DNA from: a virus
Lineage: Duplodnaviria; Caudoviricetes
Length of the DNA stretch: 56,885 nucleotides
Reading direction: 5' to 3' (one strand)
Virus record (IMG/VR): IMGVR_UViG_3300030109_001059
Location: 1 to 56,885 of that record
The position numbers were made by a program, and so were the translations under genes. The notes under the pieces were generated by a model, which had not been told where the DNA came from, ran no database searches, and worked only from the letters and a program-made list of their open reading frames with translations. The first letter of the stretch is position 1; every line of letters starts with the position of its first letter. Of this stretch, positions 15,343-56,885 are shown piece after piece.

Positions 15343-16368
15343 ATGGCTGCAACAAATTATCCAAGTAGTTTAGATAGCACAAGTAATCTTCCGAGTAGTA
15401 TTTCTGAAACTGCTAATCTTAATTCACCTAATCATGCTGATATGCATGAGGTTACGAATACGGCGATTGTTCAAATTGAGGAGAAGGTAGGTACTGGTGA
15501 TACTACTGCTTCTACTGGCGCTGTTCTTATAGGTACTGGTTCTGGGGCTTCTGCTTGGGATACGTCACCTACGTTTCTTGGCGATGTAACTGTTGGCGTT
15601 AATGATACTGGCCATGACGTTAAGTTCTTTGGTGCTTCTGCGGATCATTGGATGCTTTGGGATCAAGCGTATGATGCTTTAGTTCTAACTCAAGATAGCG
15701 GTATATATTTTTATGATAGAGGTGGCGAAAGAATTGTAGCTGCTGGTGATGGGCATTTAACTATGGATGCTGGTACTACGTTGGATTTCACAGCACCAAC
15801 GATTGATTTGAATGCTTCTACAATAGTTACTATAGATGGTGACGTTGACCTTAACGGCGCTTTAGATGTTTCTGGCACTTTAAAAGTTGCTAATGGGTCT
15901 GACAGCGCCCCTTCTTTAACGTTTGCTAGTGACCCTGATCTTGGTTTTTTTCGATCAGCAGCAAACAACATGGGTTTTAAAGCTACGTTACCTACAGTTA
16001 CAAGTTACACAACGTTACGTCGAGGAGAAGACGCTAGTGGCAGGACGTTAGTAATAGGTGCAGATAGTTCGTCAAAACGGTATAAAGAAAATATTGAAAA
16101 CTTTACCAAATCAGATTGGGAAAATGTTTACAATTTACAAGCTGTAAAGTTTAACTGGAAAGAAGAAATAAACGCACAACGTACACGATCATTTGGTTTA
16201 ATAGCAGAAGACGTAGCCGAACAAATCCCAGAACTAGGCGTTTACCGTGTTGTCGATAGTGAAGGCGACACTCCTGTCGTTGACTCAGTAAACTACGAAC
16301 AACTATGCGTGTATTTGCTTGAAGTTGTTAAAGATCTAAATAGCCGTTTAAAAACATTAGAAGGATAA
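15343..16368 (+). CDS. Tail fibre with C-terminal intramolecular chaperone (peptidase S74-like)
   Basis: SSKRYKENI...FGLIAEDV...VNYEQL plus terminal coiled coil. Confidence 0.75.
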   Translation: MAATNYPSSLDSTSNLPSSISETANLNSPNHADMHEVTNTAIVQIEEKVGTGDTTASTGAVLIGTGSGASAWDTSPTFLGDVTVGVNDTGHDVKFFGASADHWMLWDQAYDALVLTQDSGIYFYDRGGERIVAAGDGHLTMDAGTTLDFTAPTIDLNASTIVTIDGDVDLNGALDVSGTLKVANGSDSAPSLTFASDPDLGFFRSAANNMGFKATLPTVTSYTTLRRGEDASGRTLVIGADSSSKRYKENIENFTKSDWENVYNLQAVKFNWKEEINAQRTRSFGLIAEDVAEQIPELGVYRVVDSEGDTPVVDSVNYEQLCVYLLEVVKDLNSRLKTLEG

Positions 16369-16370
16369 TA

Positions 16371-16502
16371 ATGGAACTCAGCCCAGTAGAGATACTTCAA
16401 GAAGTAGAAAGACAATTTCCGCTACAACTACAAATCTGCGTACAAGCAGTACAAATCAGAAAGTTACAAGAGCCACCAGAAAATGATACCGACAACGAAT
16501 AG
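16371..16502 (+). CDS. 43-aa small protein (MELSPVEILQEVERQFPLQLQICVQAVQI...), not in ORF track
   Basis: Fills the gap between fibre and endolysin; homologous to 18520-18687. Confidence 0.6.
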   Translation: MELSPVEILQEVERQFPLQLQICVQAVQIRKLQEPPENDTDNE

Positions 16503-17208
16503 CAGTATAAATACTAAACTTCTACACCCTGAGTTTAAACGCAGGTTAGAAGCGTTTTTTGCAGATGACAGAATTTCTGGCCGTGTCAAGGTAGTATCTG
16601 CTGTACGTACTTACGCACAACAAAAATACTTGTACGACGGATACAAAAGCGGTAGGGCAGGTTTTAACCTAGCAGCTAACCCTGACCGTAAAACAGCGTC
16701 AGGCTTTCAGGGTTCGTATCACATGCAGCAACCAGCGTTTGATAACTGGGGTTATGCCGTTGACTTTAGAATTACTGGGCGTGGTATCAGTACTTCTCAA
16801 GTAAACGCTATAGCTAAATCTTATGGTATGGTTGCATACGTTAGAGGAGAGTGGTGGCATCACCAGCCTTGCAAGGTAGTTAAGGGCAAGATTCAGTGGT
16901 TTGATGCTCCGGCTTTGAAGGGAACGAAAGCTAAGAAGAAAGTTAAGCAAGACCTTAAGGGTATCGGCGCTGCGTTAGCTGAGATAGAAGATTTGATTCG
17001 ACGGCATCCGTTGAAGAAGGGTTCTAAGGGGCAGCCTGTGAAAGTAGTTCAGGGGCTTCTTGGTAATAAGGGGTTTTATCGGTACAAAGTTGATGGGGAT
17101 TTTGGAAGGCTTACGCATAAGGCTGTTGTGGAGTTTCAGAAGCGTCGTCTATTATATGTTGATGGGATTGTTGGTCCTAATACTTGGAAGGCTTTATTGA
17201 GAAAATGA
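16483..17208 (+). CDS. Endolysin: M15 (VanY-like) peptidase plus C-terminal peptidoglycan-binding domain
   Basis: SAVRTYAQQ, GSYH, GYAVD and EWWH zinc-peptidase motifs; VDGDFGRLT...FQ...VDGIVGPNTW PG-binding motif. Confidence 0.8.
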   Translation: MIPTTNSSINTKLLHPEFKRRLEAFFADDRISGRVKVVSAVRTYAQQKYLYDGYKSGRAGFNLAANPDRKTASGFQGSYHMQQPAFDNWGYAVDFRITGRGISTSQVNAIAKSYGMVAYVRGEWWHHQPCKVVKGKIQWFDAPALKGTKAKKKVKQDLKGIGAALAEIEDLIRRHPLKKGSKGQPVKVVQGLLGNKGFYRYKVDGDFGRLTHKAVVEFQKRRLLYVDGIVGPNTWKALLRK

Positions 17209-17450
17209 AAGAATATTTAGATTTACTTGAACGCTGCGGAGCGACTTTCGTACAAGCAGCAGTAGCCACGATCAGTGGTAACTCCTTCCTTGAGATGGGC
17301 GTAAGCAACTGGAAACTTGTTGTAGCTTCTGGGTTTGCTGCCGTGTTATCTGTTCTTAAAGGTTGGGCTGCTACTAAAGTTGGAGATAGTTCGTTCTCGT
17401 TGGTTGGTCGTAAGACTCAATCTGAGGAGATTCTTTACGGAGAAGAATAG
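17205..17450 (+). CDS. Holin (r1t-like), module A
   Basis: LERCGATFVQA, two hydrophobic segments, SVLK; overlaps the endolysin end. Confidence 0.65.
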   Translation: MKEYLDLLERCGATFVQAAVATISGNSFLEMGVSNWKLVVASGFAAVLSVLKGWAATKVGDSSFSLVGRKTQSEEILYGEE

Positions 17451-17459
17451 GGGTGTTGT

Positions 17460-18233
17460 ATGGCTACAAATTTCCCTAGTAGTTTAGATACTTCGACTCA
17501 GCAGCCGACAATTGCTGCGTCGGATGAGATGGATGATTCTGGTAAGGAACATGATGTTGTTCATACAAATCATTCTGGTGCGATTATTGCGTTAGAGACG
17601 AAGTTGGGTACTGGTGATTCTAATGCTGTTGCTGATGCTGTGCTTATGGGTACTGGTTCTGGTACGTCTGCGTGGGATACTTCTCCTACGTTTAAGGGTG
17701 CGTTGACTGTCGGTGTTAATGGTACTGGGCATGATGTAATTTTCTACGGAGCGACAGCCGACACTAGTTACTTTTGGTGGGACGAAAGCGACGACAGAAT
17801 GGTGGTCAGTGGGAAGGTAGAATTTGTTGGCGACGGCGCTTGGAAAACATGGACTCCAACATGGGGCAACGTATCAATCGGAAATGCGACAGTAGTTGCA
17901 CAATACGTTCAGCTCGACGAATGGGTATTCGTAAAAATGAGAGCTGTAGCAGGTAGTGGGACTGGTTATTCGTCAGGGTCTATGTCCGTGTCACTTCCAG
18001 TGGCAGCAGAGGGTAATACTAGCTACCAATGGCTAACCTGTGCGTTAGCTCCAGACGGAGGAACGCTTTATGAAGGGCCAGTTCTGACTTCAGGGTCTTC
18101 AGCGTTTCTTTGCACTGAGGTTGCAAGTAGCACTTACGCTTCTTTGACGAATGCCAACGGTGGTACAAGTGTTCCAGCAGGGTGGAACACAAGCGGAATT
18201 ATTCACATGAACGGATGGTATCGGGCAGCATGA
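17460..18233 (+). CDS. Tail fibre/receptor-binding protein containing the A/B junction
   Basis: N-half paralogous to 15343-16368; middle nearly identical to the end of the 55410 fibre; WKTWTPTW tip motif. Confidence 0.7.
   Translation: MATNFPSSLDTSTQQPTIAASDEMDDSGKEHDVVHTNHSGAIIALETKLGTGDSNAVADAVLMGTGSGTSAWDTSPTFKGALTVGVNGTGHDVIFYGATADTSYFWWDESDDRMVVSGKVEFVGDGAWKTWTPTWGNVSIGNATVVAQYVQLDEWVFVKMRAVAGSGTGYSSGSMSVSLPVAAEGNTSYQWLTCALAPDGGTLYEGPVLTSGSSAFLCTEVASSTYASLTNANGGTSVPAGWNTSGIIHMNGWYRAA
17739..17987 (+). repeat. 249-bp direct repeat, copy 1
   Basis: Matches 56637-56885 except at 17750, 17756, 17813, 17874 and 17879; last 108 bp identical. Confidence 0.95.
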
Positions 18234-18520
18234 TGATCCAAATAGGTTTAGAACCAGCACATGGAGTTTACAATTCTGGGACCGAACAGTGGGAGGATGG
18301 TACTGACGGCCCAATGAGTGACGCTCAATGGGTGGCCATGCTCAGACGAGAAAGAGATCGTCGCCTAGTAACTTCTGACTGGACTCAAACAGCAGACAGC
18401 CCATTGTCTGATTCTAAAAAAGTTGAATGGGCTTCATATAGGACAGCATTGAGAAATTTGCCTGCAACTGCTACCTTGGGAATGGTTGTAGAGTTTCCTG
18501 ACCCACCTGAAGGAGCGTAA
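18230..18520 (+). CDS. Tail fibre assembly chaperone-like protein
   Basis: LRRERDRRLVTSDWTQ...WASYRTALRNLP...FPDPP signature; ATGA overlap with the fibre. Confidence 0.8.
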   Translation: MMIQIGLEPAHGVYNSGTEQWEDGTDGPMSDAQWVAMLRRERDRRLVTSDWTQTADSPLSDSKKVEWASYRTALRNLPATATLGMVVEFPDPPEGA

Positions 18521-18687
18521 TGGAAGAACAATTACCGCAAGAAGCGATACTACAAGAAATACAAGCACGTTACCCACAGGAGTTTCTTATTTCTGTGCAA
18601 GCTGTGCGTATCTCTGCGTTGCTTAACCACATGAAAGAGTGTGAATGTGAGCATTGTAGGGCGCATGCTGGGACATTAGAGGGTTAA
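18520..18687 (+). CDS. 55-aa small protein (MEEQLPQEAILQEIQARYPQEFLISVQAVRI...CECEHC), not in ORF track
   Basis: TAATG coupling and AAGGAG RBS; homologous to 16371-16502. Confidence 0.6.
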   Translation: MEEQLPQEAILQEIQARYPQEFLISVQAVRISALLNHMKECECEHCRAHAGTLEG

Positions 18688-18693
18688 TATAGG
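18669..18693 (+). promoter_or_regulatory. Putative phage late promoter TGGGACA-N12-TATAGG (copy 1)
   Basis: One of five same-spacing copies upstream of + strand late genes. Confidence 0.65.
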
Positions 18694-18701
18694 AGGCTTT
18701 A

Positions 18702-19166
18702 ATGTCGATTACTGGTTATCAGGGGGATAATTACAAGGATTTAGTATCTGGGACTACTGGTGCTGCTGCTAGTTCGATAGCTCCTAATTTATCTACTGCT
18801 ACTGCTAACACGCAGGAAACTCTGGCTTGGAATACTTATCATAGTCAAAGGGCTTTGATGGATTGGGCTAGGCAGCAGGATCGTTCAAAACGCTCGTTTG
18901 ATTTAGGTGTTCGTAGTTTACCTGCTGCGTATAATCGGCGTGGGATGCTTGACAGCGGTCAGTATCAGCGTGGTGGGCAGCGTTTAGCGGATGCTTATGG
19001 CCGAGCTACTGGTGATTTGAGGTCTGATTTAGAGACAGTGTTACAGGGTTTGGGTTTGCAGGATTTAACTGCACAGTATGATTTAGGAGAGTTGCGCCAG
19101 ATGGTGGGTACAGATAGGTTTCAGCAGGTTGTTGCGAATGCTTTGCGTAGTCAGGGGATGGCATAA
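18702..19166 (+). CDS. Putative internal virion protein
   Basis: 154 aa, A/Q/G-rich, RRGMLDSG motif; AGGAGG RBS. Confidence 0.55.
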   Translation: MSITGYQGDNYKDLVSGTTGAAASSIAPNLSTATANTQETLAWNTYHSQRALMDWARQQDRSKRSFDLGVRSLPAAYNRRGMLDSGQYQRGGQRLADAYGRATGDLRSDLETVLQGLGLQDLTAQYDLGELRQMVGTDRFQQVVANALRSQGMA

Positions 19167-20611
19167 TGAGTCACGAATGGTGGCATCACGGCCCTGTAGG
19201 GAAAGTTGTGGATAAAATCAACCCGATGAATTACGACTCTATTTACGATGATTTGGGAGGCTGGATTCAAAGCGGTTGGAATGAGTCTGGCTTAGGTGAT
19301 AGCTCTACTGTTCAAGGAGGCCTGTTTGATGTTATAGGTGGTTTACCTGTGTTGGGTGGAACTACATCTATTAACGATGTAGTTACTGGAATACCTCAGA
19401 TAGCAGGAGATACTATACAAGGCGTAACCAGCGGTGTTATGTGGCCTATGGAGAACATTAAAGAAGGCGTTCAAGAAATGTTTAACCCAAGTGGTCCTAC
19501 TCAAGAGGAATTGATTGCAGGTTACATAGACCAGTACGGGATGCCTGAGTTAGTTGGCGGTGGAATAGGTTCACCGTATGCTAATCTTTCGCAAGCAGGT
19601 CCTGAAAATTATGGTCCTACTCCTCCAAGGGATCAAAACATTAACGACGTATTCGCAGGCGTTGACTATGTTGACCAAGTACTTGGTGAAGCTGGGCCTT
19701 ATGGTGGCGGTGGATCTCCAGCTTATCAAGGGCCAAGCGCATTAGATTACTACACTCAGCTTGCCAATATGCAACGCGAAGAGGCTATAAGAGCAGCTTC
19801 TGCTGGCACAGGCCTTGTAGAAAGCGAGTACGCAAGATTACTTGAAGACTACGACAGGTGGGAAGCCGAAAGAGGAGCTACTACTGAAGCTTCAAATGTG
19901 GCATCTCAAGGAAGACTTGATGAGGCTTTAGAGTTCATGGGTGTATCCCTTGATGAGACATCTTCTGCGTTAGCTGACATTGGGATAGATGCTTTAGAAA
20001 CAGTTCGTGAAGTTGGTGGTGAAGTGGGCGCAGCGTTGTATGGCATATACAACATGGGCGCTGACTTAACTTCTAATTTGGATCGGATAGCTGCTGATAC
20101 GTTGGCACAAATGAGGTCGCAGACCGACAGTGACCTTGCTATGGGCTTATTCCAGATAAGCGAGAATTTACAATCGACACTTTCTATGATCGATGCAAGC
20201 GTTTTGCAGCGTAAAATAAGCGGTGCTGAGGCTGCTGCTGCTGCTGCTGCCGAGCTTCAGCAAGCACAGCAAGATGCTCAGATGCAAATGGATATAGCTA
20301 CAATTATTGCTGCTGGTAGTGCAAATAGGGGAGGTGCTCTTAGTGACCCTTGGGAAGTTTACGCTTTGATGGAAGCTGGTTTGCTTGATGACAGCATGCT
20401 AATGGCCCCTGATGCTCCTGATCCAGTAGAGCAGCCAAACATGTATCAAGGGGTTCCTATGGAATGGCTAGATGACTATTTGGGCTTGTTTGATACTCAG
20501 TATCTGACGCAGGAAGAACTGGATGAGATTGTTTCTGGCATAATAGCGCAACGAGGAGGTGCTGGTTTTGATCCTGCTACTATTGCTGGCCTTCCTCAAT
20601 TTCAGTCATAG
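19166..20611 (+). CDS. Putative internal virion protein
   Basis: 481 aa, acidic, Gly-rich then helical; coupled start. Confidence 0.5.
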   Translation: MSHEWWHHGPVGKVVDKINPMNYDSIYDDLGGWIQSGWNESGLGDSSTVQGGLFDVIGGLPVLGGTTSINDVVTGIPQIAGDTIQGVTSGVMWPMENIKEGVQEMFNPSGPTQEELIAGYIDQYGMPELVGGGIGSPYANLSQAGPENYGPTPPRDQNINDVFAGVDYVDQVLGEAGPYGGGGSPAYQGPSALDYYTQLANMQREEAIRAASAGTGLVESEYARLLEDYDRWEAERGATTEASNVASQGRLDEALEFMGVSLDETSSALADIGIDALETVREVGGEVGAALYGIYNMGADLTSNLDRIAADTLAQMRSQTDSDLAMGLFQISENLQSTLSMIDASVLQRKISGAEAAAAAAAELQQAQQDAQMQMDIATIIAAGSANRGGALSDPWEVYALMEAGLLDDSMLMAPDAPDPVEQPNMYQGVPMEWLDDYLGLFDTQYLTQEELDEIVSGIIAQRGGAGFDPATIAGLPQFQS

Positions 20612-20613
20612 TC

Positions 20614-23600
20614 ATGGCAATAGAGTTTGATTCAGCGGGGCCTTTAACAGAAGAAGTTAAACTTTCTCGTTCTAATATAGCCAAAGCTCTGGGGATACAA
20701 GCTCCGACGACTCCTGCTCCTGCTCCTATTGTCCCCCAACAACCTATAGCACCTCCACAGACTACTGGATTTAGTGTTGCTGGGCCTCTTACCCAGCCTA
20801 AGCCGAAGCAAAGCGGAGGTATTTTTGATGTACCTATTTTGGGTCCTATCATTGGCGTGCTTGACGCTCCGCGTTCTTTTTTGGTTTCTACAGTTAAAGA
20901 AGTAGGAGATATTTTTGCAGATGGGCAAAGCTTTTCTTTAAATGAATGGTGGGATCAAGCTAACCGTCACATGATGGGGGGAGAAGTACTCAGGGATTGG
21001 AATATTGGGCCTGATGGTTTAGAAGGTTTTCTTCTTGGTTTAAGTCTTGATGTTGCTTTAGATCCTTTGACGTATATGGCTGGCCTTGGGTTGGCTGCTA
21101 GGGCTTCTAAAGTTGATGATGTCGCTAAGGCGCTTATCGACGTGGGTCGCACAGCAGAAAAAGCTGGCGATATTCAGAAAGCTGAACGAATGTTCAGAGC
21201 TGAGGAGGCTGTATCCCGTAGTCGCACGATTATGGCTGGCGGAGATGCTTTAAAAGAAATAGGTATTGATACAGGGTTAAGGTTTACTATTCCTGCGACT
21301 GGCCGTTTAGGTCGAGGAATCGTTGAACGCCCTTTGCGTTCTATGGTTCCTCGTCTTGGCGATTGGTTGGATGTTCGCCGTGTTCAACAGTTAGCTCCAA
21401 CTGCTGTTAAGGGTAGGTCTGGTTCTTTAACGTTTGTCGAGAAGGCCATTGACACTACTGATGATGTGGTGCAAGCCCAAATTCTTAAAAGGATGGGAGA
21501 TATACGAAAAGGGGTTCTTGGCGGTGGTGTGAATAGGCAAATAGATGCTGCTGCTCGTGCAGCTATGAACATGCCTGTTGAAGCGTTTAAGATTCCTTTT
21601 TCTACGGGAAGAGTTATGGCTACTATGGCTGGTAGTTTGGGTAAGACTTGGCGTGGTGTGTTGGCGACTAAGTATGGGGCTAGCATAGCTGATGGTCTTT
21701 CTACTTCGGCTCCTATTCGTCGGTCTAGGTCCGCTAAGAATGCTGAAGAGCGTCTTTGGGGCTACTTTGGTCAGGAGGGGGCGCAAGCTTCTGATGTATC
21801 TGCGGGAATCTGGAAAACATATACTTCAAATGAGTTTAACAAGATCGTTAGGAACGCTCATAAAGCTGGTTTAACAGATGAGGACTTTGCTAAAATTATG
21901 GTTGGTGTTGAAGCTCCCCTTAGGTACAGGCTAGCTGCAGCGGGGCAGGAAGGTGTTCTTCCCCCTAGCCAGTTCACTGGGGAGGAAATACTTAACCCTT
22001 ATCTTTTGGAGTTATCTGGTAAATACCATACTGATGCGTGGATAGATACGCATACGGCGCTTGTTAATTTTTGGGAAAACGTTGGAACTAAATGGAATGA
22101 TTCTTTGCCTCTTGCTGGTGTTAAACCGCATTTGTCTATGTTGAGGGAGCAGTTTTATTCTGCTCACTTTATTGATGATGAGGGGTGGCGGGCTTTAAAA
22201 CGATTAGGCCCTGACGATCCGATGCTTCCTGCTGATAAAGCTGGGACTACTGGTTTGCGTGGTTCTGCAACTACTGGAAGAAAGATAGCTGAACCTGAAG
22301 AAATAGTTAGGATGGTTGAGGACAACTGGGGTTCATTTAATATATCTCCAGAGTTTACGCGAATGATTCATCCTCGTAAATTGAACTTAAATAGGAATGT
22401 CGGTAGGGAAGAGTTCTTAGCAAAGCTTAGAATCCATTTAAATACTGTTGGTGAAAGTCTTACTATTAAGTTAATGGATGGCGGAGAAGCTGTTCGCCAT
22501 AATTTAGTTGGGAAAGCACCTATTAAGGACCCAAGGTTAGCTGGGGGGTTAAGCGCTCGCGCTCAGCAGGTTAAACTTGGGGAAGATGCTGGGCTTGAGA
22601 ACTGGATCGATATTTTTTCTAAAGATCCTCAGAAGGTATTTACTCGGTATGTAACCCAGATGGAGTCAACGCTTCGCGCTGACTACATGCTTGATTACTT
22701 TCAGGAGGCAGGCATTGTTGTCAAAGGTTTTGAAGGTCAGCCATTTCTTGGCTCCTATGATAACTTTCAAAAACAAATACTGGCGATGTTTCCTAAAGTA
22801 TACGCCCAGATGTGGGATGGTACTGCTTTAGGTAGAAAGGGTGTAAGTAGGAAGTATCGAGGGACGATGGCCCAGCAGCAAGATCTAGATAGGGTCGCTG
22901 CTGAAATTAACGATTTGGAAGATGCTCTTGCTTGGATGGATAATCCTGTTGGCCCGTATGGGGGCAGCAAAAACGTTTCTGCTGCTTCTGTTGAAAAGAG
23001 CAAAGCGGTAGTTCGAGATCTGGCTCAGGTTGAGGGTTTAATTTCTGATGTTACAAGTGCGGTGTCTGCTTTGTTAAATGGTTCTATGAAGGGTTTAAGT
23101 CAACGTGCCCGTATGCTTTTGCAGGGGGATGAAGTTGTTCTTGATTTAGCTGGGACTGTTTCTAAGAAGCAGTTCAAAGAAGCTCGTAGGGCTGCTGGTC
23201 TTGAAGTTACTAAAGGTCTTCCTAAAACAGCTAGAGTTAAAATTCCTCGCCCTGCAACAAAAGCGCCGTCTACTACGGGTCTTGCTCGTGCTTTTAAGAA
23301 TAAGGAAGTTATAGAGGCGAGTCAGGAGGAAGCTGCTCAGATACTTGCAGAGTTGTACGGGGTGCAGCAGTCTCTTAGGGCCGTGGTGACTGGTATTCAG
23401 AATCAAATTAAGTTAGTTGGTAAGGTCGCTGAAGGCGCTCCTGAATCTATTAGAAACTTGTGGGATTTGGGCGAGGGCCTCCCTGCGTACCGCCCTCGTA
23501 ATTTACGAGATATTAGTCAAGCTGACGATTTGGATACGTTGTTGGGGGCAGCTAAAGAAGCTGATTATGCTAAGGAATCTTTTGGTGTAACCCCTTCTCA

Positions 23601-26912: not shown

Positions 26913-26932
26913 GTCGCGTGTACGCGACACGG

Positions 26933-45359: not shown

Positions 45360-45619
45360 TGACAGACAATCTACATGTGTTTTTTAATACTTGCTTGCGT
45401 ATCCTCAGTGTGTTTGGCATTCAGTGTATGGCAATTATTGGGGGCAGCTCTATTATTGGTGGCATTGAGGTGCATAAGGCAGCAATTCTTAGCGGTGTTG
45501 CTGCTGTAGCGCAGGTGTTGCAAAAGCTAGCTATAGCTTTTGCAGATGATGGGAAGTTGACGCAAGCTGAGCTTGACGCTGCTTTTCAGAATAGGTCTAT
45601 CGAAGGGGAGGGCCGTTAA
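45359..45619 (+). CDS. Small membrane protein
   Basis: Hydrophobic segments then DDGKLTQAELDAAF. Confidence 0.55.
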   Translation: MTDNLHVFFNTCLRILSVFGIQCMAIIGGSSIIGGIEVHKAAILSGVAAVAQVLQKLAIAFADDGKLTQAELDAAFQNRSIEGEGR

Positions 45620-47768: not shown

Positions 47769-47780
47769 GTTGTTTATAGA
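47756..47780 (+). promoter_or_regulatory. Putative late promoter TGGGACA-N12-TATAGA (copy 4)
   Basis: Exact spacing; separate from the downstream RBS. Confidence 0.65.
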
Positions 47781-47806
47781 GCATATGTATACATGGAAGG
47801 TGCTTA

Positions 47807-48091
47807 ATGGCAAGTAAATTTGTATCTCACACGAGTGCATCACAAACAGTTGACGGGAAATCAGGGAAAAACAACAAAATGGAACGTGGTTCCAGTGTTG
47901 TTGCAAACCCTATTTGGGAACCACATGGTCCTCAAAGCCCTAAACAACGTTTTGATGGCGGAAAAATCAGTAACCAATCGACTGATAAGGGTCACACCTC
48001 AGTTCGTGAAACGCCGAAAAACCAGCATGGTATTTCTGGCAAGGTAGAACCCGCACACAAACAACCACATTACAAAGGACATAACGCTTAA
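47807..48091 (+). CDS. Basic hypothetical protein
   Basis: GGAAGG RBS. Confidence 0.55.
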   Translation: MASKFVSHTSASQTVDGKSGKNNKMERGSSVVANPIWEPHGPQSPKQRFDGGKISNQSTDKGHTSVRETPKNQHGISGKVEPAHKQPHYKGHNA

Positions 48092-48093
48092 AT

Positions 48094-48351
48094 ATGGCGA
48101 TCTTGCCCAGAGGGGCAAGCTACGAAGAATTTGTAGAATACGTTACTAATTTGCGTGGCGAAGTCCCTGAAGAAGAACTGAAGGAACTGTACGAACGCCG
48201 TTTAAAGCTTCATGGTATTACTTTTGATACGAAGCGTGGTTGGAGAGCAGTTGCTCTTGCTCCTGACGAGCAAGACTTAACTAATCGAGAACGTGAACAG
48301 AAGATAGTTTCTGAAGCTAAAGCTCAGGGCAGAAACATAGCAAGGGTTTAA
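48094..48351 (+). CDS. Hypothetical protein
   Basis: 85 aa, immediately before the portal. Confidence 0.55.
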   Translation: MAILPRGASYEEFVEYVTNLRGEVPEEELKELYERRLKLHGITFDTKRGWRAVALAPDEQDLTNREREQKIVSEAKAQGRNIARV

Positions 48352-48352
48352 T

Positions 48353-50254
48353 ATGGCTAAAAAAACTCGCCAAGAACTTCTTGACGATGCTCAAGAAAGA
48401 GTTCGTAAATGTAAACAATGGCGTGAATCAGAAAGCCTTGACCACACTTGGCGTAGACTCAATGACCTGTATCGCGGGAAACATTTCCCTGCTAGTAGTG
48501 TAAATAAACAAGATTTAATCTCTGTAAATTTAGCTTTTTCAACAGTTAACGTAATAGCGCCTTCCGTAGCTGTTAACTACCCTAAGATCGTTGTACAAGC
48601 TAACAAACCAGAAGATAGAGATAGAGCTGTTTTTGTAGAAGCTGTTATTAACCACTTGTGGAAACACCATGATTTCCGAACCCCATTTAGAAGAGCTGTT
48701 AAAGATTTTCTTATCTTTGGTCATGGTTGGGTAAAGGTTGGTTGGAAGTTCGTTGAGCAAGAACAAACAGTTACTGATAATGAAAGAGACGGCATTATCC
48801 AGCAAGCTTTAGATGAAGTGAAAATGTTTGCTCAGGACAACCCTGAAGAAGCACTTCAACTACCTACAGATGCAGAAATTGTCGCTAATGTGCCTGAAAC
48901 TATCATGCGAGTTGTTGAAGATCAGCCTTTCGTTGAACGGGTAAGCCCATTTGATGTATACGTTGACCCTGAAGCTACTTGTTTGGAAGATGCTAAGTGG
49001 ATTGCCCAGCGAGTAATACGTCCTCTTGCTATGGCAAAAGAGGATAAACGCTACAAGCCAGCAGCTCGGAAAAGATTGAATCTTTCTAACGTAGAATCTG
49101 AACTTCGTTATACGGCTGCGGAAGACGATAAGCGCCAATATGTAGATGAACGTGTTGTTATTTGGGAATACTACGATGTTGCAGCTAACACTCTTTCTGT
49201 ATATGCAGAAGATGGGGATGAATTTCTTATAGACCCCATACAAATGCCTTACGCATACGGTCAACCGTTTGTCATGATACGAAATTATGATGTTCCTGAC
49301 CAATTCTACCCAATGGGAGATCTAGAAGCGTTAGAGCCTCTACAGCTAGAACTTGATAAAACTCGTAGCCAACTAATGAACGACAGAAAAAGGTATGCTC
49401 GTAAATACTTATACCACGAAAGATCGTTTGGTCCTGAAGGTCGTGAAGCTCTTGAATCTGAAGATGATGGCCGTTTAGTCCCTGTTGTGGACGAAAATAA
49501 ACCTTTGTCAGAGGTCGTTATGCCTATGCCTCAGGTCCCTGTATCCCCTGAAATATATAATTATTCTCAAATTATTGAAAATGACATTAATACTGTTTCA
49601 GGTATTTCAGAATATGCACGAGGTGCTATGCCTGAAGTGCGCCGTACAGCTACTGAAGCTTCTATTGTTGCTGACGCTCAAAATGCACGCTCAGCAGACA
49701 AATTGGCAATAGTTGAAATTTCTACTTCTTTAGTAGCTAGACGAGTTGTCCAGCTTATGCAGCAATTTATGACTGGTGAGCAGATGGCTCGTGTGGCTAT
49801 GAAAGGTGGCGATTCTGTATTTGTGCCGTACACCCGTGAGGAAATTGTGGGCGAGTACGATTACAGCGTTCAAGCTGGTTCTACACAACCGATGAATGAA
49901 ACTATAAGAAAGCAGCAAGCTATTTCCTTGATGAACGCTGTTGCTCCTTTGGTTGGAACAGTAATAGACCCTGCTGCTTTAGCAATGCACGTTTTGGAGT
50001 TTGGATTTGGGATACAAGATCCTGATAAATTCTTAATGCAACAACCTCCTCCTCAAATGATGGGCGAAGAAGAAGCACCACCCGAAGAGGGTGGTGTTCC
50101 CCCTGAAATGATGGGTTCTGGGCCACCAATTCCTGCTGAGATGATGGGTGGGGTTCCTCCTAGTCCTGAATTATTTGCCCCTACGGGCGGTATTCCTCCT
50201 GAAATACTGGCTCAACTACAAAATCAGATGGGACTACAGCTTCCATCCTTGTAG
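48353..50254 (+). CDS. Portal protein, module B
   Basis: 633 aa; GHGWVKVGW, VERVSPFDVYVDPEA, RRTATEA; M/P/Q-rich tail. Confidence 0.85.
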   Translation: MAKKTRQELLDDAQERVRKCKQWRESESLDHTWRRLNDLYRGKHFPASSVNKQDLISVNLAFSTVNVIAPSVAVNYPKIVVQANKPEDRDRAVFVEAVINHLWKHHDFRTPFRRAVKDFLIFGHGWVKVGWKFVEQEQTVTDNERDGIIQQALDEVKMFAQDNPEEALQLPTDAEIVANVPETIMRVVEDQPFVERVSPFDVYVDPEATCLEDAKWIAQRVIRPLAMAKEDKRYKPAARKRLNLSNVESELRYTAAEDDKRQYVDERVVIWEYYDVAANTLSVYAEDGDEFLIDPIQMPYAYGQPFVMIRNYDVPDQFYPMGDLEALEPLQLELDKTRSQLMNDRKRYARKYLYHERSFGPEGREALESEDDGRLVPVVDENKPLSEVVMPMPQVPVSPEIYNYSQIIENDINTVSGISEYARGAMPEVRRTATEASIVADAQNARSADKLAIVEISTSLVARRVVQLMQQFMTGEQMARVAMKGGDSVFVPYTREEIVGEYDYSVQAGSTQPMNETIRKQQAISLMNAVAPLVGTVIDPAALAMHVLEFGFGIQDPDKFLMQQPPPQMMGEEEAPPEEGGVPPEMMGSGPPIPAEMMGGVPPSPELFAPTGGIPPEILAQLQNQMGLQLPSL

Positions 50255-50258
50255 TTTT

Positions 50259-50283
50259 TGGGACACTGTGATTAACTTATAGG
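50259..50283 (+). promoter_or_regulatory. Putative late promoter TGGGACA-N12-TATAGG (copy 5) before scaffold/capsid
   Basis: Exact spacing; separate from the AGGAGG RBS near 50307. Confidence 0.65.
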
Positions 50284-50319
50284 AACAACTTATTCACTGA
50301 GACTCCTAGGAGGGCAATT

Positions 50320-51072
50320 GTGCCTGAAGAAACAGAAGCCATAGAACCCACTCAAGAAGTGGACAACCTTGAAACTTCAACAGAAGTACCAGAGGAACCT
50401 GCATATACTGTCAAAGTAGATGGTGAGGAAGAGCAGGTCACCCTTGAAGAACTTCAACAAGGTTACCAAAGGCAAGCGGATTATACCCGTAAAACGCAAG
50501 AGGTAGCTGCTGAACGTGAAAGACTGCAACAAGCAGAGCAGATTGTATCGGCTCTGGAAGCAGATCCTGAAGGTACGCTTCAAACTTTGATGCGTTCATT
50601 CAATGTAGATTTAACACCGCCCTCGCGAGAGGAACAGCGTGAATTGGCTGAAGAGTGGGATTCTATGGATGAAACTGAACGTAAAGTGATAATGCTTGAA
50701 CAAAGATTAGCGGACCAAGATCAGAGATTTGCCCAACAGGAACAGGTTCAAAGGGTTCAGCGAATAGAGCGTGAAGTTAATTCTTTACAAGAAAAATACG
50801 GAGAGTTCGACGGAAAAGAACTTGTCAATCATGCCATCAAGCATCGTATCCCTAATTTGGATGCAGCATATGCTCACTGGCGTTTCAACGATGTTAAATC
50901 TGTTGCGGATAAATTAACGCAAGATCAAGAAATAACATCTAAAAAACGAGACGCTTCGGTTGTTACAACTGGTGGTTCAAGTCAAGCAACTGGTGATGTT
51001 GAATCAACTCCTCAAGTTTCAAGTCTTAGAGACGCTTTCGCTTTAGCCAAAAAACAATTAAGCAACAATTAA
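50320..51072 (+). CDS. Capsid scaffolding protein, module B
   Basis: YTVKVDGEEEQVTLEEL..GYQRQADYTRKTQE scaffold motif, coiled coil. Confidence 0.8.
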   Translation: MPEETEAIEPTQEVDNLETSTEVPEEPAYTVKVDGEEEQVTLEELQQGYQRQADYTRKTQEVAAERERLQQAEQIVSALEADPEGTLQTLMRSFNVDLTPPSREEQRELAEEWDSMDETERKVIMLEQRLADQDQRFAQQEQVQRVQRIEREVNSLQEKYGEFDGKELVNHAIKHRIPNLDAAYAHWRFNDVKSVADKLTQDQEITSKKRDASVVTTGGSSQATGDVESTPQVSSLRDAFALAKKQLSNN

Positions 51073-51091
51073 CCTCTAAGGAGATAAGAAT

Positions 51092-52054
51092 ATGGCTGGT
51101 AACAGCAATTTTGATGAGATTCTTACCACCACCTTAAATAACTATGTTCCTAAATTGGTTGACAACATTTTCACAGCTAGGCCTCTGTTCTATGCTTTGA
51201 CAAATGGTCAAACAATTCGGCGCATCAACGGTGGTGCTAAGATAGTTGTTCCTGTAATTTATGGAACGAACTCAACCGCTTCTTCTTACAGTGGGACAGA
51301 TTCAATTTCTACGACTGCTCAGACAGGCATTTCAGCCGCTGAGTACAACTGGAAACAGTATGCTGCCACTGTAACCATCAACGGCTTGGAAGAAGCCAAA
51401 AACAATGGTGAGGCACAAATCATTGACCTTCTCGAAGGCAAGATTTTCCAAACCCAAGAAACAATTATTGAAAACATGAACGCAATGTTCTATGCAGACG
51501 GAAATGGCAACAGCCAAAAAGACTGGATGGGCATTGGCGGTATTGTTGGAACAGGCAACGATGGCGGTGGCGCAGCAGCCATTGGTAACATCGATGCTTC
51601 TGGTTCTAACAACACATGGTGGAGATCATCAGTTACTAACGTAGGTGGTGCTCTAACCGTGGCTGGCATGGCAACCATGTACAACAATGTTTCTGTAGGT
51701 AACGATCAGCCAACGATCATCATTACTGACCAAGACGAATACGAAAAGTATGAGTCTCTTCTCACTGACCAAATTCGGTACACAGATACCGATATGGCCG
51801 ACAGTGGGTTTCAGAACCTTCTATTCAAGGGTGCGCCTGTAACGTTTGATGCTGATTCAAACCTTGACGGCAAAATGTACTTCTTGAACACGAAGTATCT
51901 ACAACTCGTTGCACATAGCGATGTTTGGTTTAAGCCAACACCGTTTGTACGACCAACCAACCAAGACGCTGTGTTCTCACAGATTCTTTGTTACGGTGAG
52001 CTAACCACAAGCAACAGAGCGCGCCAAGGTGTGCTTGTTGGTCTAACCGACTAA
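51092..52054 (+). CDS. Major capsid protein, module B
   Basis: 320 aa after the scaffold; LVDNIF, AEYNWKQY, GFQNLLFKG, MYFLNT, CYGELTTSNRARQG; AAGGAG RBS. Confidence 0.85.
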   Translation: MAGNSNFDEILTTTLNNYVPKLVDNIFTARPLFYALTNGQTIRRINGGAKIVVPVIYGTNSTASSYSGTDSISTTAQTGISAAEYNWKQYAATVTINGLEEAKNNGEAQIIDLLEGKIFQTQETIIENMNAMFYADGNGNSQKDWMGIGGIVGTGNDGGGAAAIGNIDASGSNNTWWRSSVTNVGGALTVAGMATMYNNVSVGNDQPTIIITDQDEYEKYESLLTDQIRYTDTDMADSGFQNLLFKGAPVTFDADSNLDGKMYFLNTKYLQLVAHSDVWFKPTPFVRPTNQDAVFSQILCYGELTTSNRARQGVLVGLTD

Positions 52055-52061
52055 GTTGCTG

Positions 52062-52313
52062 ATGGGTAGAGAATACGCTTACGCATACAAATCAAACGCA
52101 AAACCTTATGGGCAGCCTAAGGATAACTTTCACGAAAGTACTCCTCGGCCTGAAAGCGTAGGTTTGAAAAGAAATGTTCGTCGAGTTATGGACACTAGCG
52201 TAGCCGTTGCATCCCCTGAAGTTAGCAAATGCAGTGCGCTAACCCGAAGTGGGGAACCCTGTAAAGGGCGACCTGCTTCGGGTAGCGATCTGTGTAACTT
52301 CCACAGGAAGTAA
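52062..52313 (+). CDS. Small protein with C-terminal CCCH zinc finger
   Basis: CSALTRSGEPCKG...CNFH. Confidence 0.55.
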   Translation: MGREYAYAYKSNAKPYGQPKDNFHESTPRPESVGLKRNVRRVMDTSVAVASPEVSKCSALTRSGEPCKGRPASGSDLCNFHRK

Positions 52314-52315
52314 CT

Positions 52316-53020
52316 ATGCAAATATCCGAAATGCGAACGTACATTAGAGGAATACTGGATATAGATTCCACGGATATTTCAGACGATATTCTTAATCGTT
52401 TTATAGGTGAAGGCTACGATCAAGTTGTTTATTCTGAGAAACGTTGGCCTTTTTACGAAGTCGAAAAAACTTTCAGCACTGTAGCTGCCACTAAGGACTA
52501 TGACCTTAAAACAGATGGGGCTGTTTTTACTTCAGGTTTGCGTGATGTTGCTGCCTTAAGAACAGATGACCATGTGCTTTCATACATAGGTCGCGACGAT
52601 GGCGACGTGGTGTATCCCCTAGATAGTAATTCAACTGGGGATGTATGGTATTTCTCATACTGGGCTGAAAAAGTGCGTTTATACCCAACGCCGTCTTCTG
52701 TTCAAACCATTTATGTTAGGGGATACGGTAAGCCAAGTGCTTTTGGCGCTGGGAGTGTTGATACTGCGACCCCTTCAGATTTTGATGAACCTTTTCATAT
52801 CCTATTCGCTACTTACGCAATAGCTCGTGCTTATGAACAGCAAGAAGACCCTGAAATGGCCCAACAGTACTATACAATCTTTGCTAGAGAGCTAGATAAT
52901 CTTAGAGCTAGATTTTTAGATGTTCCCGCGCCTCAACCGCTTGTCTTAAATTCTAGAAGCGCTTCTCGTTGGCGTTCACAAAGTATTTTACCTGACAGAC
53001 TACGTTATAGCTGGGAGTAG
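52316..53020 (+). CDS. Head-tail adaptor / tail tubular protein A-like
   Basis: Position after the capsid; WPF, RLYPTP and FHILF motifs. Confidence 0.65.
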   Translation: MQISEMRTYIRGILDIDSTDISDDILNRFIGEGYDQVVYSEKRWPFYEVEKTFSTVAATKDYDLKTDGAVFTSGLRDVAALRTDDHVLSYIGRDDGDVVYPLDSNSTGDVWYFSYWAEKVRLYPTPSSVQTIYVRGYGKPSAFGAGSVDTATPSDFDEPFHILFATYAIARAYEQQEDPEMAQQYYTIFARELDNLRARFLDVPAPQPLVLNSRSASRWRSQSILPDRLRYSWE

Positions 53021-53023
53021 CCG

Positions 53024-54616
53024 ATGGCTAAAGAAGGCTATAAAACGCAAGTCTTAGAAAGTTTCTCAGGTGGGTTGAATTACAGAACCGATCAATTCAA
53101 TCTTGCCCCTAACGAATCACCTGATATGTTAAACGTTGACATTGACCCTCGTGGAGGTGTCAAGTTACGCAAAGGGGTTGCAGCAGTAAATTCAACGCAG
53201 GTTAGTTCTTCTAAGGAAATTATTGGGTTGGGTTCTTTTTTTACTGATTCTGGGACTTCTCATATTGTTGGCAATTACGGTACTGCGGTTGCGTACAGTA
53301 CAGGTGGAAATTTTACAACAATTTCTAGTGGGATTACGGCAAGGACTGATGGTTCTCGCATGTATGGCATGACGATGAACAACGTGTTTTATGGCGTGTC
53401 TGGAGATGTTGTTTCTTTTAAATGGGATGGTTCTAGCGGGGCTGATCTTGGAGTTAATTTAAATGGTTCTGCTGGGAATTATCCTATCGCCCAGTACACG
53501 GCGTTCTGGAATAACTTTGCATGGGCTGCTAAAACTCGTGAAGATGGAACTTACGAAAATTCTAGGGTTCGTTGGTCTAACGCTAACTTCCCTGAAAAAT
53601 GGACAGCAAATGACTATGTAGACATAGACGTTGGAGAACGTGGTGACTATATCACTGGGCTTCTTCCGCTTTCTGATCGTTTACTTGTTTTTAAGAACAA
53701 CAGTATTCATGCTATTTATGGTTTTGATTCTGATACTTTTCAAGTAGTTGCTTTGTCTCGTGACGTTGGTTCTGTTGCGTTGTCTTCTCCTGTATCCACA
53801 CCGTATGGGGTGTTTTTCTGGTATGGGCGTGAAGGAATAATGTTGTATGACGGTCAGCAATTTACTAATGTGTTTGAAAAACTGAAGCCTGCTATAGACA
53901 ATGGAAGAATTAGTTTTACGACAGCTCCTCAGTTGGCTTGGTTTGAAAATCGTTTATATGTTTCTGTAGACATGCTGAAATACTATGAAACAGGTACGAC
54001 TCGTTCGCGTCATGTGTTTGTATATGATCCTTCGATACGTTCGTGGGCAGCAACAGATATTAACGCTGCGACGTTACATGTTCATAGCGCTCCTACTGCG
54101 CTTCCTTTGCTTTTAGGAGCTTCCCAATTCTCTGGTTCTGGAGATAAGGGTCGTGTCGTTAAGTTGGAACAATCTAGAACTACGGACAGTTACAACGGTA
54201 GCGCTTCTACACGCATTAACTCATTTTTTACTACTCCTTGGATTTCTGGGAAAAATCCTGTTGTGAAAAAACGGTGGGGTAAACCTCAGGTAGTTATGGA
54301 TGCTGCTGCTACCCAAACTATGGAAATTGATGTGTATTCTGATTTTGATAAAGCTTCTACTAGCAAAACTGTGTATTTAAATGTTTCTGGTAGGGATTCT
54401 ACTTACACTTGGGAAACTGATGATACTGGCACAGGTAGTCTTTGGGGAACAGCTACTTGGTCTTCTGAAGCTGCTTCTAGCATTACTGATGTTGTTCGTT
54501 TACAAAGCTTAGGTTTATCTAAATCTGTAGCTTTAAAAATTAAGGGTCCTTCTCAATCTGTTGATTGGGAAATTAATGGAATTATGTTTACTTACAAACC
54601 AAGGAGATTACGCTAA
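53024..54616 (+). CDS. Tail nozzle / tubular protein B-like (beta-propeller)
   Basis: FSGGLN...ESPDMLNVD, RVRWS...PEKW, LLVFK; 530 aa. Confidence 0.7.
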   Translation: MAKEGYKTQVLESFSGGLNYRTDQFNLAPNESPDMLNVDIDPRGGVKLRKGVAAVNSTQVSSSKEIIGLGSFFTDSGTSHIVGNYGTAVAYSTGGNFTTISSGITARTDGSRMYGMTMNNVFYGVSGDVVSFKWDGSSGADLGVNLNGSAGNYPIAQYTAFWNNFAWAAKTREDGTYENSRVRWSNANFPEKWTANDYVDIDVGERGDYITGLLPLSDRLLVFKNNSIHAIYGFDSDTFQVVALSRDVGSVALSSPVSTPYGVFFWYGREGIMLYDGQQFTNVFEKLKPAIDNGRISFTTAPQLAWFENRLYVSVDMLKYYETGTTRSRHVFVYDPSIRSWAATDINAATLHVHSAPTALPLLLGASQFSGSGDKGRVVKLEQSRTTDSYNGSASTRINSFFTTPWISGKNPVVKKRWGKPQVVMDAAATQTMEIDVYSDFDKASTSKTVYLNVSGRDSTYTWETDDTGTGSLWGTATWSSEAASSITDVVRLQSLGLSKSVALKIKGPSQSVDWEINGIMFTYKPRRLR

Positions 54617-55410
54617 TGGCTGGAACATTATCTATTACAAATGACAATTTTCAGGCTGGCACTGCAATAGTTGCTTCTGAAATGAATACTAACTTTACTG
54701 AGGTTGAGAACTATATCAATAATAGTATGCCTTCTTTGGGGACAGCATCTGTGTTTACTGCTGCTGTTACTTGCAATGCTGGTTTTACTTCTACAACGGT
54801 AACAACTTCAGGCGAGTTAAAAGTACAAGACCAAGCATGCATAAGAGACGACGCAACCCCTGCAACGATAACTGATAGGTTACTTACGCTTCGGACACAA
54901 ACTTCAGGTATGGTTCCGTTGTTAGCGTTGGCAGAAACTGCTGTTTCTGGCACTACGCCAGTAGCTGGAATCTTTATGATAGGCACTGACGGTGATGGCA
55001 CTAATCCTGATACTAACGATTATTGGCTTTTGTTTCGGAAGGGAAATGGCGACACTATTGGTTCTGTCCGAGGGACTGGATCTAACACTGTTAATTTTGA
55101 AACATCTTCAGATCAAACGTTAAAAAATGATCTTGGGGTTGTTACCGAAGCTTCTTCTGTCATTGATGCTTTACAAGTTCATAAATTTACTTGGAAAGAC
55201 GCTGACAGCAAAGTTGGTGAACACATAGGTTTATTCGCTCAAGAAGCTATTGAAGTTCTACCTTATGGAATAGTTTCTCCAGCAAGCACACGAACAGAAG
55301 ATGGCAAAGAAATGTATATTCCTGCTGGTATTGACTATTCCAAGATCGTTCCTTTTTTAATTGCTGAGATTCAAAGCTTGCGGGCTAGGGTCGCTGCTGT
55401 GGAGGGCTAG
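54616..55410 (+). CDS. Tail fibre with S74-like intramolecular chaperone
   Basis: ASEMNTNF N-terminus; SDQTLKND...GLFAQE...[17 protein letters not shown]. Confidence 0.75.
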
Positions 55411-56885
55411 TGCCTAGAGATATACAATACACCAAGCTATTAGATCCTATTGTTCAGATAGCTATAGCTGACGGCCTTGATTACGAGGGGACGTATTCAG
55501 CGTCTACAACGTATGCTGCTGGCGATGTTGTAACACATCCTGCGGGTTCAGGCGCTTCGTCCTATGTTGCTAGGCAAGCTACTACTGGCAATGCTCCAAG
55601 TGATTCTGCGTATTGGCAGACGTTAGCTTCTTCTGTTACTGGCCCAACTGGTTCAACTGGTCCAACGGGGCCAACAGGTCCCGCTGGACCCACAGGCCCA
55701 AATGGTCCTACAGGGCCAAATGGCCCCACAGGACCTACAGGCCCAACAGGAGGAACAGGACCTACTGGACCTACAGGCCCTACAGGGCCAAGTGGTGCTG
55801 ATGGTAACACCATATTAAATGGTAGCGGAGATCCTAGTGGACCTACTGGTTCTAATGGCGATTTCTATATTGATACAAACGACAATGAAATTTTTGGACC
55901 TAAAAGTGGAAGTGGTTGGGGTTCAGCCACGTCACTTGTAGGCCCAACTGGTCCAACTGGACCTACAGGTCCAACTGGGGGAACTGGCCCTACAGGTCCA
56001 ACTGGTCCCGCTGGCCCTACAGGTCCTGCGGGACCCACAGGTCCTGACGGTCCTAACGGACCTACTGGCCCGACTGGACCCGCTGGCCCCACTGGGCCTG
56101 CTGGTCCGACTGGTTCTACTGGCCCGACTGGGCCTACAGGCGCACAAATTCTTAATGGCAGTGGTGACCCTTCTGGCCCCACAGGTTCTAACGGTGACTT
56201 TTATATAGATACTGGGGATAACGAAATCTTTGGCCCTAAGTCAGGTTCTGGCTGGGGTTCTGGTACTTCGTTGGTGGGACCTACTGGGCCTAGTGGCCCT
56301 ACTGGTCCCGCTGGGCCGACTGGACCTGCGGGTGGGACTGGTCCTACTGGGCCGACAGGCCCAACTGGACCTGCTGGACCTGATGGTCCTGATGGCCCTA
56401 CAGGTCCTAGTGGTGGTACTGGTCCTACAGGCCCGACTGGTCCTGCTGGTCCTGCTGGACCAACTGGACCTACAGGACCTACTGGTCCTTCTGGTACTCC
56501 TGCTGGTTCAGATCATCAAGTTCAATGGAACGACGGTGGTAGCTTTGGGGCTGACGCTAATCTTACTTATGATGGTTCAACGTTAACTGCTAAGGCAGCG
56601 TTAACTGTCGGCGTTAACGACTCAGGCCATGACGTTATTTTCTACGGGGCGACTGCCGACACTAGTTACTTTTGGTGGGACGAAAGCGACGACAGAATGG
56701 TGGTCAGTGGAAAGGTAGAATTTGTTGGCGACGGCGCTTGGAAAACATGGACTCCAACATGGGGCAACGTAACAATTGGAAATGCGACAGTAGTTGCACA
56801 ATACGTTCAGCTCGACGAATGGGTATTCGTAAAAATGAGAGCTGTAGCAGGTAGTGGGACTGGTTATTCGTCAGGGTCTATGTCC
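55410..56885 (+). CDS. Collagen-like tail fibre (3'-truncated), missing from ORF track
   Basis: GTG at 55410, frame open to the window end; CBM5/12-like [13 protein letters not shown]...YW, three Gly-Pro-Thr collagen blocks, two ILNGSGDP...GPK..GWG domains, then the tip shared with 17460-18233. Confidence 0.85.
56637..56885 (+). repeat. 249-bp direct repeat, copy 2 (window end)
   Basis: Matches 17739-17987 with 5 mismatches; offset 38,898 bp. Confidence 0.95.

Follow-up and report, generated by a model that had tools for sequence, protein, structure and literature searches.

How does one and the same C-terminal fibre tip come to stand behind two unrelated N-terminal parts within a single viral record? 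The question is raised by the IMG/VR record IMGVR_UViG_3300030109_001059 (Caudoviricetes), which is listed as one linear contig and whose full length of 56,885 nucleotides (nt) is referred to here as the window. A preliminary description of the sequence had pointed out three fibre genes carrying a conserved peptide, TVGVNxxGHDVxFxGA, which was regarded as a hinge and recombination point for the exchange of fibre tips. A six-frame scan found this peptide at exactly the three sites named there and nowhere else, i.e. at 15589-15636 (TVGVNDTGHDVKFFGA), 17706-17753 and 56604-56651, and the translations together with Pfam bear out the proposed gene make-up, with an N1 anchor followed by an S74 tip, an N1' anchor followed by a tip called X, and a collagen shaft followed by the same tip X. 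We consider it likely that these genes belong to two marine podophages with fibres built from three parts, and that a cassette of about 0.8 kb was moved recently by recombination, with its 5' junction at the edges of the repeat unit containing the peptide. The first part of such a fibre would be the N-terminal virion-attachment part, either an 80-residue N1-type anchor or a collagen shaft, the optional second part would be a single 38-residue copy of a widespread β-strand fibre repeat, and the third would be a C-terminal tip with an S74 chaperone in its own chain or with a separate chaperone gene. The features are listed in Table 1.

Two unrelated phages fused in one record

The record is an assembly chimera, in which a fragment of one phage (phage A, 1 to ~17.9 kb) is fused to one circular permutation of another (phage B), both of which are uncultured marine podophages unrelated to each other. 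PHROG and Pfam matches identify two different sets of virion genes comprising portals, capsid proteins, endolysins and terminases, and the capsid proteins belong to different families (phrog_1357 in phage A, phrog_9953 in phage B), which agrees with the earlier assumption that the carriers of tip X are unrelated phages. Phage B is an SU10-like podovirus according to its portal (PF23899, 91.7 bits) and adaptor (PF24175, 74 bits). Identity to any deposited phage does not exceed 43% for the capsid and portal proteins of A and B, and 37% for the phage B capsid, so that neither phage can be assigned to a genus.

Related IMG/VR contigs keep A and B as separate genome types, each with its own gene order. 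The A-type loci (L010, L012, L013, L041 and others) contain the capsid gene, a gene for a protein of 142 amino acids (aa), fibre 1, endolysin, holin and fibre 2, and L010 is 98% identical to the window over 14900-17755 (blastn). In the B-type loci (L004, L005, L006, L018), the nozzle is followed by a fibre, the collagen fibre with tip X, the chaperone, a 55-aa protein, a 1841-aa protein and the endolysin. This order corresponds to the window end joined to position 17988, from which it follows that phage B is circularly permuted in the record, and the spacing of the direct repeat, 38898, fits the size of 33-41 kb found for phage B relatives. The preliminary description placed both phages in one host; what the Logan contigs show is their co-occurrence in the same runs. 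In run X1 the depth is ~5-18 over the phage A region 16000-17741 and 29-45 from 17742 on. That the record is nevertheless one genuine genome of at least 57 kb with two fibres sharing the same tip, as its CheckV rating of 100% complete and its listing as a single linear contig would suggest, is hardly credible: it would have to contain two each of portal, endolysin and terminase along with two capsid proteins belonging to separate families, the relatives of each half exist as separate 33-41-kb contigs with their own gene order, the depth differs several-fold between the halves, and the record end overlaps an internal site at the spacing typical of phage B relatives.

The exact point of the switch cannot be placed, because the sequence from 17880 to ~18500 is identical or near-identical in both phages. 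The genes downstream of this interval are of the phage B type, and the 3' end of the phage A cassette is hidden in the window by the chimeric join. The preliminary description had allowed for a chimeric contig and argued that its conclusion would survive; the record is indeed chimeric, and both junctions are seen in other assemblies. Many related contigs start or stop inside the same fibre genes (L006, L007, L024, L030, L041, L042, L044, L045). The shared 0.8-kb fibre cassette both breaks and mis-joins virome assemblies, and it is a warning that it led the assembler to fuse two phages into a record rated as complete.

One tip cassette in several gene contexts

The direct repeat 17693-17987/56591-56885 contains 17 differences, of which 14 lie in 17693-17756 (78% identity) and three in 17757-17987. 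Between the genes starting at 17460 and 55410 there are, from 17739 on, five differences in 249 nt (98.0%), four of them synonymous (17750, 17756, 17813 and 17879) and one, at 17874, changing S to T, and the last 108 nt are identical; the values given in the preliminary description all hold. Identity between the copies in phages A and B is 97-98% just past the peptide core. Read errors had been named as a possible source of the differences. At 17813, 17874 and 17879, however, the alleles are A/A/T in contigs of the runs X1-X3, G/T/T in run X4 and a third combination in L005, and since these downstream differences segregate as alleles across runs and loci in independent data, they are not read errors.

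Tip X stands behind the N1' anchor in the window and in X4, and behind the collagen shaft in phage B, in four other assemblies (L004, L005, L006, L018) and in P0007, a protein fragment. In the protein P0006 it follows an N1-like anchor with an extension. Tip X and its chaperone thus sit in three gene contexts on two unrelated backbones. P0006 corresponds to the fibre-1 gene of the A-type locus L042 (100% identity over all 239 residues available) and consists of the N1-like anchor, a 110-residue extension, the repeat unit and a tip X that is 98% identical to that of the window. The nucleotide identity of tip X to the window is 96% in L007 and L030 and 88.6% in L004, L005 and L018. L007 and L030 start inside tip X and run through the chaperone gene (94-95% aa identity to the window chaperone) into an A-type endolysin and holin; their homology to the window stops at 18501, 19 bases before the chaperone stop codon, and the same passage from the chaperone to the A-type endolysin is read in a loose end of run X2. 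These three cases support the suggestion that the tip moves together with the downstream chaperone. Distant relatives of tip X (~50% identity), e.g. in L012 and L029, also have a chaperone homologue downstream. Apart from this, contigs of X1 and X2 diverge after the holin (17450), and one X2 contig after the 55-aa open reading frame (ORF; 18695), so that the same samples must also contain these loci in other arrangements.

The gene 17460 with N1' and tip X could in principle be an assembly artefact, produced by a jump at the conserved hinge from a phage A fibre with another tip, so that no exchange between A and B would have taken place. The record demonstrably holds one wrong join in the same region, and many related contigs begin or end inside these genes. 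Moreover, at 17813, 17874 and 17879, downstream of the hinge, the phage B alleles are the only ones present in the Logan contigs of X1-X3, so that apart from the window the phage A copy of tip X is observed in X4 alone; this weighs against an exchange, as does the fact that X1 and X2 may be the source sample and hence not independent, and that Logan contigs are built with short words and could be mis-joined themselves. Phage A is rarer in X1-X3, and contigs drop rare variants. Against an artefact, a single 749-nt contig of run X4, which comes from a different study, bridges 17170-17918 and spans holin, N1', unit and tip X; it has 24 differences from the window, with which it nevertheless agrees in the alleles at 17813 and 17874. 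Three differences from the phage B copy within 17757-17879 mark this stretch as a distinct molecule. Furthermore, the longest exact run at the junction between L010 and the tip X carriers L005 and L042 is 16 bases (alignment A3), which is below the usual word sizes of assemblers, and tip X is independently present in the fibre-1 slot of an A-type phage. An artefact is therefore improbable, and both junctions, N1' with tip X and collagen with tip X, appear to be real despite the chimeric record.

With regard to the tip itself, residues 119-257 of fibre 2 (P0002) are modelled by AlphaFold2 as a β-sandwich, with a predicted local distance difference test (pLDDT) score of 76-91 over residues 120-180. 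The best structural matches in VIA are the C-terminal domain of the Dettilon tailspike (Z 7.6, root mean square deviation 3.4 over 120 residues) and avian reovirus sigmaC (Z 6.5), followed by lactococcal phage receptor-binding heads (Z 4.4-5.1), all matches being below Z 8. The model thus suggests that tip X is a receptor-binding head. With the P0002 model, Foldseek found nothing in the PDB at E ≤ 0.001, the most probable match being gp15 of Listeria phage PSA (0.82), the ESM Atlas returned only unnamed clusters below 0.9, and no match to P0002 was found in 50,697 deposited phage genomes. A search for tip X proteins of more than 450 aa found none, which is weak evidence; the full collagen fibre would have ~573 aa.

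The repeat unit and the position of the breakpoints

The hinge was not borne out as a special element. Judged from its homologues, it is one copy of a common, 38-residue tandem fibre repeat rather than a dedicated hinge. A profile built from the three window copies with their flanks was searched against 1.84 billion representative proteins and matched 3062 protein clusters at E ≤ 0.001, 96 of them at E ≤ 1e-30, so that the hinge is not a chance resemblance. The top matches contain it in 3-20 separate stretches each, arranged head to tail with the consensus TVGV(D/N)DTG(H/Y)DV.FFGA...LWDESAD.L. A hidden Markov model (HMM) of the unit finds 1-16 copies per protein in the 145 best representatives, most often 3-4, with a period of 37-96 residues, whereas the three window genes have a single copy each. 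Of 95 scanned out of the 145, S74 tips occur in 16 and a C1q tip in one, which identifies the repeat-rich proteins as fibre proteins.

No Pfam family covers the unit in the scanned proteins P0001-P0003, and the repeat-rich proteins give only partial or summed Pfam matches, such as PAS_PdeA over positions 1-42 of 106, or PRD1_P5_spike_N with 26-30 bits in sum and no single stretch passing. Sequence searches of the PDB with the protein P0126 and with the hinge profile gave nothing meaningful, the only PHROG match of the unit is a 38-residue orphan PHROG, and P0126 has one weak match in the deposited phage genomes, outside the repeat, in Pelagibacter phage HTVC106P. No published description of the repeat was found in literature searches, which were word-based and not sequence-based, so that it may still be published. 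In AlphaFold2 monomer models, each unit forms three short strands, at residues 93-96, 104-108 and 113-117 in P0002 (pLDDT 81-87) and likewise in each of the four units of P0152; the best VIA matches of the four-unit monomer model (pLDDT 65.7) are the stalks of the phi92 endosialidase (Z 3.0) and of K1F (Z 2.7), none being above Z 3.0. The unit is a useful marker for annotating receptor-binding proteins of marine phages.

The N1' anchor allows the junction to be examined in many relatives. There are 447 relatives of P0002 at E ≤ 0.001, and among the 120 listed, N1' is followed by S74, C1q or Collar tips or by one of many tips without annotation, with one copy of the unit in 55 and none in 65. 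Stricter clustering of the tips (single linkage had lumped 90 proteins via common S74 domains) gave 31 tip clusters in 119 proteins. Of these clusters, 18 are found following a unit, and 7 are found both in proteins that have a unit and in proteins that lack it. Both signs of a modular fibre are therefore present, as the same N1' anchor is joined to unrelated C-terminal tips and tip X is joined to unrelated N-terminal parts in unrelated phages. At the protein level, N-anchored BLASTP alignments end at residues 77-91, the end of the anchor, in 35 of 118 cases and at residues 110-127, the end of the unit, in 48. At the DNA level, a two-rate change-point fit was applied to 31 loci, with the change allowed anywhere in ~17610-17970; two further loci were left out as they ended too early to score. 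Fifteen change-points lie at 17692-17694, 12 at 17737-17760, four at 17785-17795 and none elsewhere. All 31 thus fall within the 104 bases of 17692-17795, 15 at the 5' edge of the unit and 16 inside it, so the breakpoints clearly cluster at the hinge as the preliminary description had expected. In alignment A3, L010 is near-identical to the window up to ~17710 and shows many differences from the unit start (change-point 17743), and the phage A copy of the window is near-identical to L005 (B-type) and L042 from the unit start on, which indicates that the unit travels with tip X.

Among the three cores within the window, 29-30 of the 32 first and second codon positions match but only 7-8 of 16 third positions, and their in-register exact runs have 7-13 bases. 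With the third positions diverged and the others kept, it is the peptide and not the DNA that is constrained, and the cores are old. The phage B core forms a local patch that differs from L005, with both flanks similar, and has a 13-base exact run in common with the fibre-1 core, which suggests conversion between units.

Mode of exchange, known systems and gene content

The combinations of modules, the positions of the breakpoints, a cassette that is nearly identical on unrelated backbones and the chimeric make-up of the record are observed, and the following mechanism is proposed to explain them. A cassette of ~0.8 kb containing the unit, tip X and the chaperone would have moved among slot 2 of the A-type fibres, slot 1 of the A-type fibres and the collagen fibre of the B type. 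The unit may be a self-contained trimer segment that tolerates any neighbour, so that recombinants joined there would stay functional, and tip X would bind the host receptor. The crossovers may have been aided by exact matches of 7-16 bases, enforced by the conserved peptide, or they may have been illegitimate and kept by selection; recombinants joined at the unit edges are the survivors. Phage B encodes a PD-(D/E)XK exonuclease, and no recombinase was identified. The earlier proposal of the hinge as a recombination point for tips therefore stands with respect to the clustering of breakpoints; a crossover driven by homology does not follow from it, as the conservation is at the protein level.

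The role of the unit in such a crossover has to be weighed against several reservations. With third positions agreeing at 7-8 of 16 and exact runs of at most 13 bases within the window, there is little homology for classical homologous recombination, and the 3' junction at 18501 is without visible homology. The unit is absent from about half of the N1' relatives, whose tips are joined directly at its 5' edge, from which it follows that the unit is not required for tip exchange. As some of the 31 loci are near-duplicates or belong to related lineages, the independent events are fewer than 31. It is conceivable, and we give this appreciable if minor weight, that the exchanges are real and that the crossover owes nothing to the hinge: illegitimate recombination would occur anywhere and only products joined at domain boundaries would fold, which would make the breakpoints seem clustered there. 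This would account for the protein-level conservation (29-30 of 32 against 7-8 of 16), for a 3' junction without homology and for the 15 of 31 change-points at the anchor end without any unit. On the other hand, the two junction classes, one at the 5' edge and one where the 16-residue core ends on its 3' side, lie directly to either side of the 48 bases that are most conserved, and the phage B core patch with its 13-base run in common with another fibre's core looks like conversion, although both are still compatible with selection. A more general idea can be offered only tentatively, namely that the 38-residue unit is a universal, self-folding trimer connector, absent from Pfam and PDB, which works stacked or single with any neighbour and channels cassettes via short exact DNA matches between unrelated phage lineages of the ocean virome. 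Returning to the recent transfer of the cassette, the present case maps at base level the passage of a tip with its chaperone between two marine phages that co-occur and are both uncultured and unrelated to each other.

The exchange of fibre tips at conserved borders is already well established, and the present case is a new example. What is new is the junction at a very common unannotated repeat, a transfer that is recent and resolved to the base, and the involvement of uncultured lineages; the repeat singled out in this way is a candidate natural splice point for fibre engineering. In T-even phages, the His boxes have the form GxHxH, and according to Tetart et al. (work of 1998) such motifs in gp37/gp38 are reportedly crossover sites that swap adhesin specificity. 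Like the His boxes, the unit is a repeated conserved motif inside fibre genes; unlike them, it has a single His/Tyr position, no GxHxH or HxH, another consensus, and occurs in podophages. The T7-type gp17 and P22-type tailspikes consist of an N-terminal virion anchor, conserved over ~80-150 residues, and of C-terminal tips that are unrelated to one another; no sequence relation was found, P0002 having no match in the 50,697 deposited phage genomes, and in the fibres described here an optional repeat unit stands between anchor and tip.

In Alteromonas phages A5, V22 and P24, which belong to unrelated families, the fibre tip and the downstream chaperone are common, which was attributed to horizontal transfer in the part of that article considered here (PMC10579305). 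Our case resembles this one in that a tip and a chaperone gene are common to unrelated marine phages. According to the same part, the Alteromonas module consists of proteins that are 35-60% similar and includes a DUF4376 chaperone, whereas here the DNA identity is 96-99%, the chaperone belongs to PF16778, and the 5' junction maps to a defined repeat unit (PMC10579305). In coliphage tailspikes, conserved DNA motifs flank the receptor-binding domain and, in the portion of the article drawn on, are proposed as recombination hotspots (PMC10408124). Both systems have short conserved stretches at the border between anchor and tip that are found across genera and coincide with tip exchange. As described in that portion, however, it is the DNA that is conserved in the coliphage motifs (63-81% identity, 20-95 nt), one of which is a non-coding terminator, whereas here a structural peptide repeat is conserved and the synonymous sites have largely diverged (PMC10408124). 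Cross-family module transfer has also been described for pelagiphages, with no fibre content in the part of that report used (PMC9599517).

Table 1. Features of the window, with strand and the evidence or content of each.
Feature	Position	Strand	Evidence or content
Phage A backbone fragment	1..17459	+	PHROG and Pfam matches; same gene order in L010, L012, L013, L041
Phage A fibre 1	15343..16368	+	341 aa; N1 anchor, one repeat unit, tip ending in S74 intramolecular chaperone
N1' anchor of fibre 2, residues 1-81	17460..17702	+	72-99% nucleotide identity to 33 other loci
Fibre 2 repeat unit ("hinge")	17703..17819	+	16-residue core 17706-17753; unit HMM match at residues 82-120
Tip X, β-sandwich head, presumed receptor-binding domain	17820..18233	+	AlphaFold2 model and structural matches
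A-to-B assembly switch interval	17880..18501	.	Last distinguishing allele 17879; contig breaks and loose end 18331-18501
Phage B, one circular permutation, 38,898 bp	17988..56885	+	Repeat spacing; PHROG/Pfam; L004/L005 order across the junction
Tail-fibre assembly chaperone, travels with tip X	18182..18520	+	PF16778, 64.7 bits (cut-off 26.6); phrog_4912
Phage B S74-tip fibre	54616..55410	+	264 aa; PF13884 at residues 165-216, 38.9 bits (cut-off 22)
Phage B collagen-shaft fibre, cut by record end	55410..56885	+	PF01391 in 5 stretches, 78.5 bits

In fibre 1, the Peptidase_S74 domain (PF13884) lies at residues 243-299 (42.6 bits, cut-off 22) and the repeat unit at 15586-15699, with its core at 15589-15636 and the unit HMM match at residues 82-119. 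Fibre 2 (gene 17460-18233, 257 aa) has no Pfam family; its anchor N1' and the anchor N1 align over ~120 residues, and their DNA is 74% identical over 182 nt. The chaperone gene, whose PF16778 domain is named Phage_tail_APC, lies directly downstream of this fibre. The six-frame motif scan found no repeat unit in the S74 fibre of phage B. The collagen fibre shows 9-nt periodic repeats (G-x-y) and carries the unit at 56601-56717 (core 56604-56651, unit HMM match at residues 398-436), followed by the first 56 residues of tip X. Its shaft at 55620-56500 is organised in three G-x-y blocks, the second and third of which are each preceded by a conserved non-collagen insert of ~40 residues, and inserts and blocks together form an internal repeat of ~330 bases.

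The genes of phage A are arranged in the order terminase C-terminal end, portal (377-2146), a 2129-aa protein, a lysozyme-bearing 704-aa protein and capsid (13795-14733), and after the capsid come the 142-aa protein, fibre 1, endolysin (16483-17208), holin (17184-17450) and fibre 2. In phage B, the chaperone is followed by the 1841-aa protein, the endolysin, replication genes on the minus strand, the terminase, the SU10-type portal and the adaptor, after which come scaffold, capsid, nozzle, S74 fibre and collagen fibre.

Seven matches in genome bins are scattered over Isosphaeraceae, Actinomycetota, Dehalococcoidia (three), Ilumatobacteraceae and Acidobacteriota. In L046-L052, N1'-type anchors stand on short contigs in metagenome-assembled genomes (MAGs), i.e. 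three of Dehalococcoidia, two of Actinomycetota, one of Isosphaeraceae and one of Acidobacteriota. As these matches spread over several phyla and are probably mis-binned viral contigs, no host is called.

The large terminase of phage B is split on the minus strand into two ORFs (46210-47768 and 45597-46211) that lie in different frames and have an overlap of 4 bases, one of 296 aa with Terminase_6N and the other of 223 aa with PHROG matches to the C-terminal part of terminases. A 2OG-Fe(II) oxygenase gene on the opposite strand abuts the first of these ORFs. The 514-aa protein at 43642-45186 has no family and contains a Pro/Thr-rich tandem stretch at 44127-44288. Its homologues (38-63% aa identity) are located 5-7 kb downstream of fibre 2 in the A-type loci L007, L009, L010, L012, L014, L029 and L034, which makes it a second gene common to both otherwise unrelated backbones. 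The two endolysins, 16483-17208 and 26139-26912, differ in their catalytic parts and have a C-terminal segment in common with ~38% aa identity; amidase PHROG matches were obtained for the endolysin at 26139-26912 and none for that at 16483-17208.

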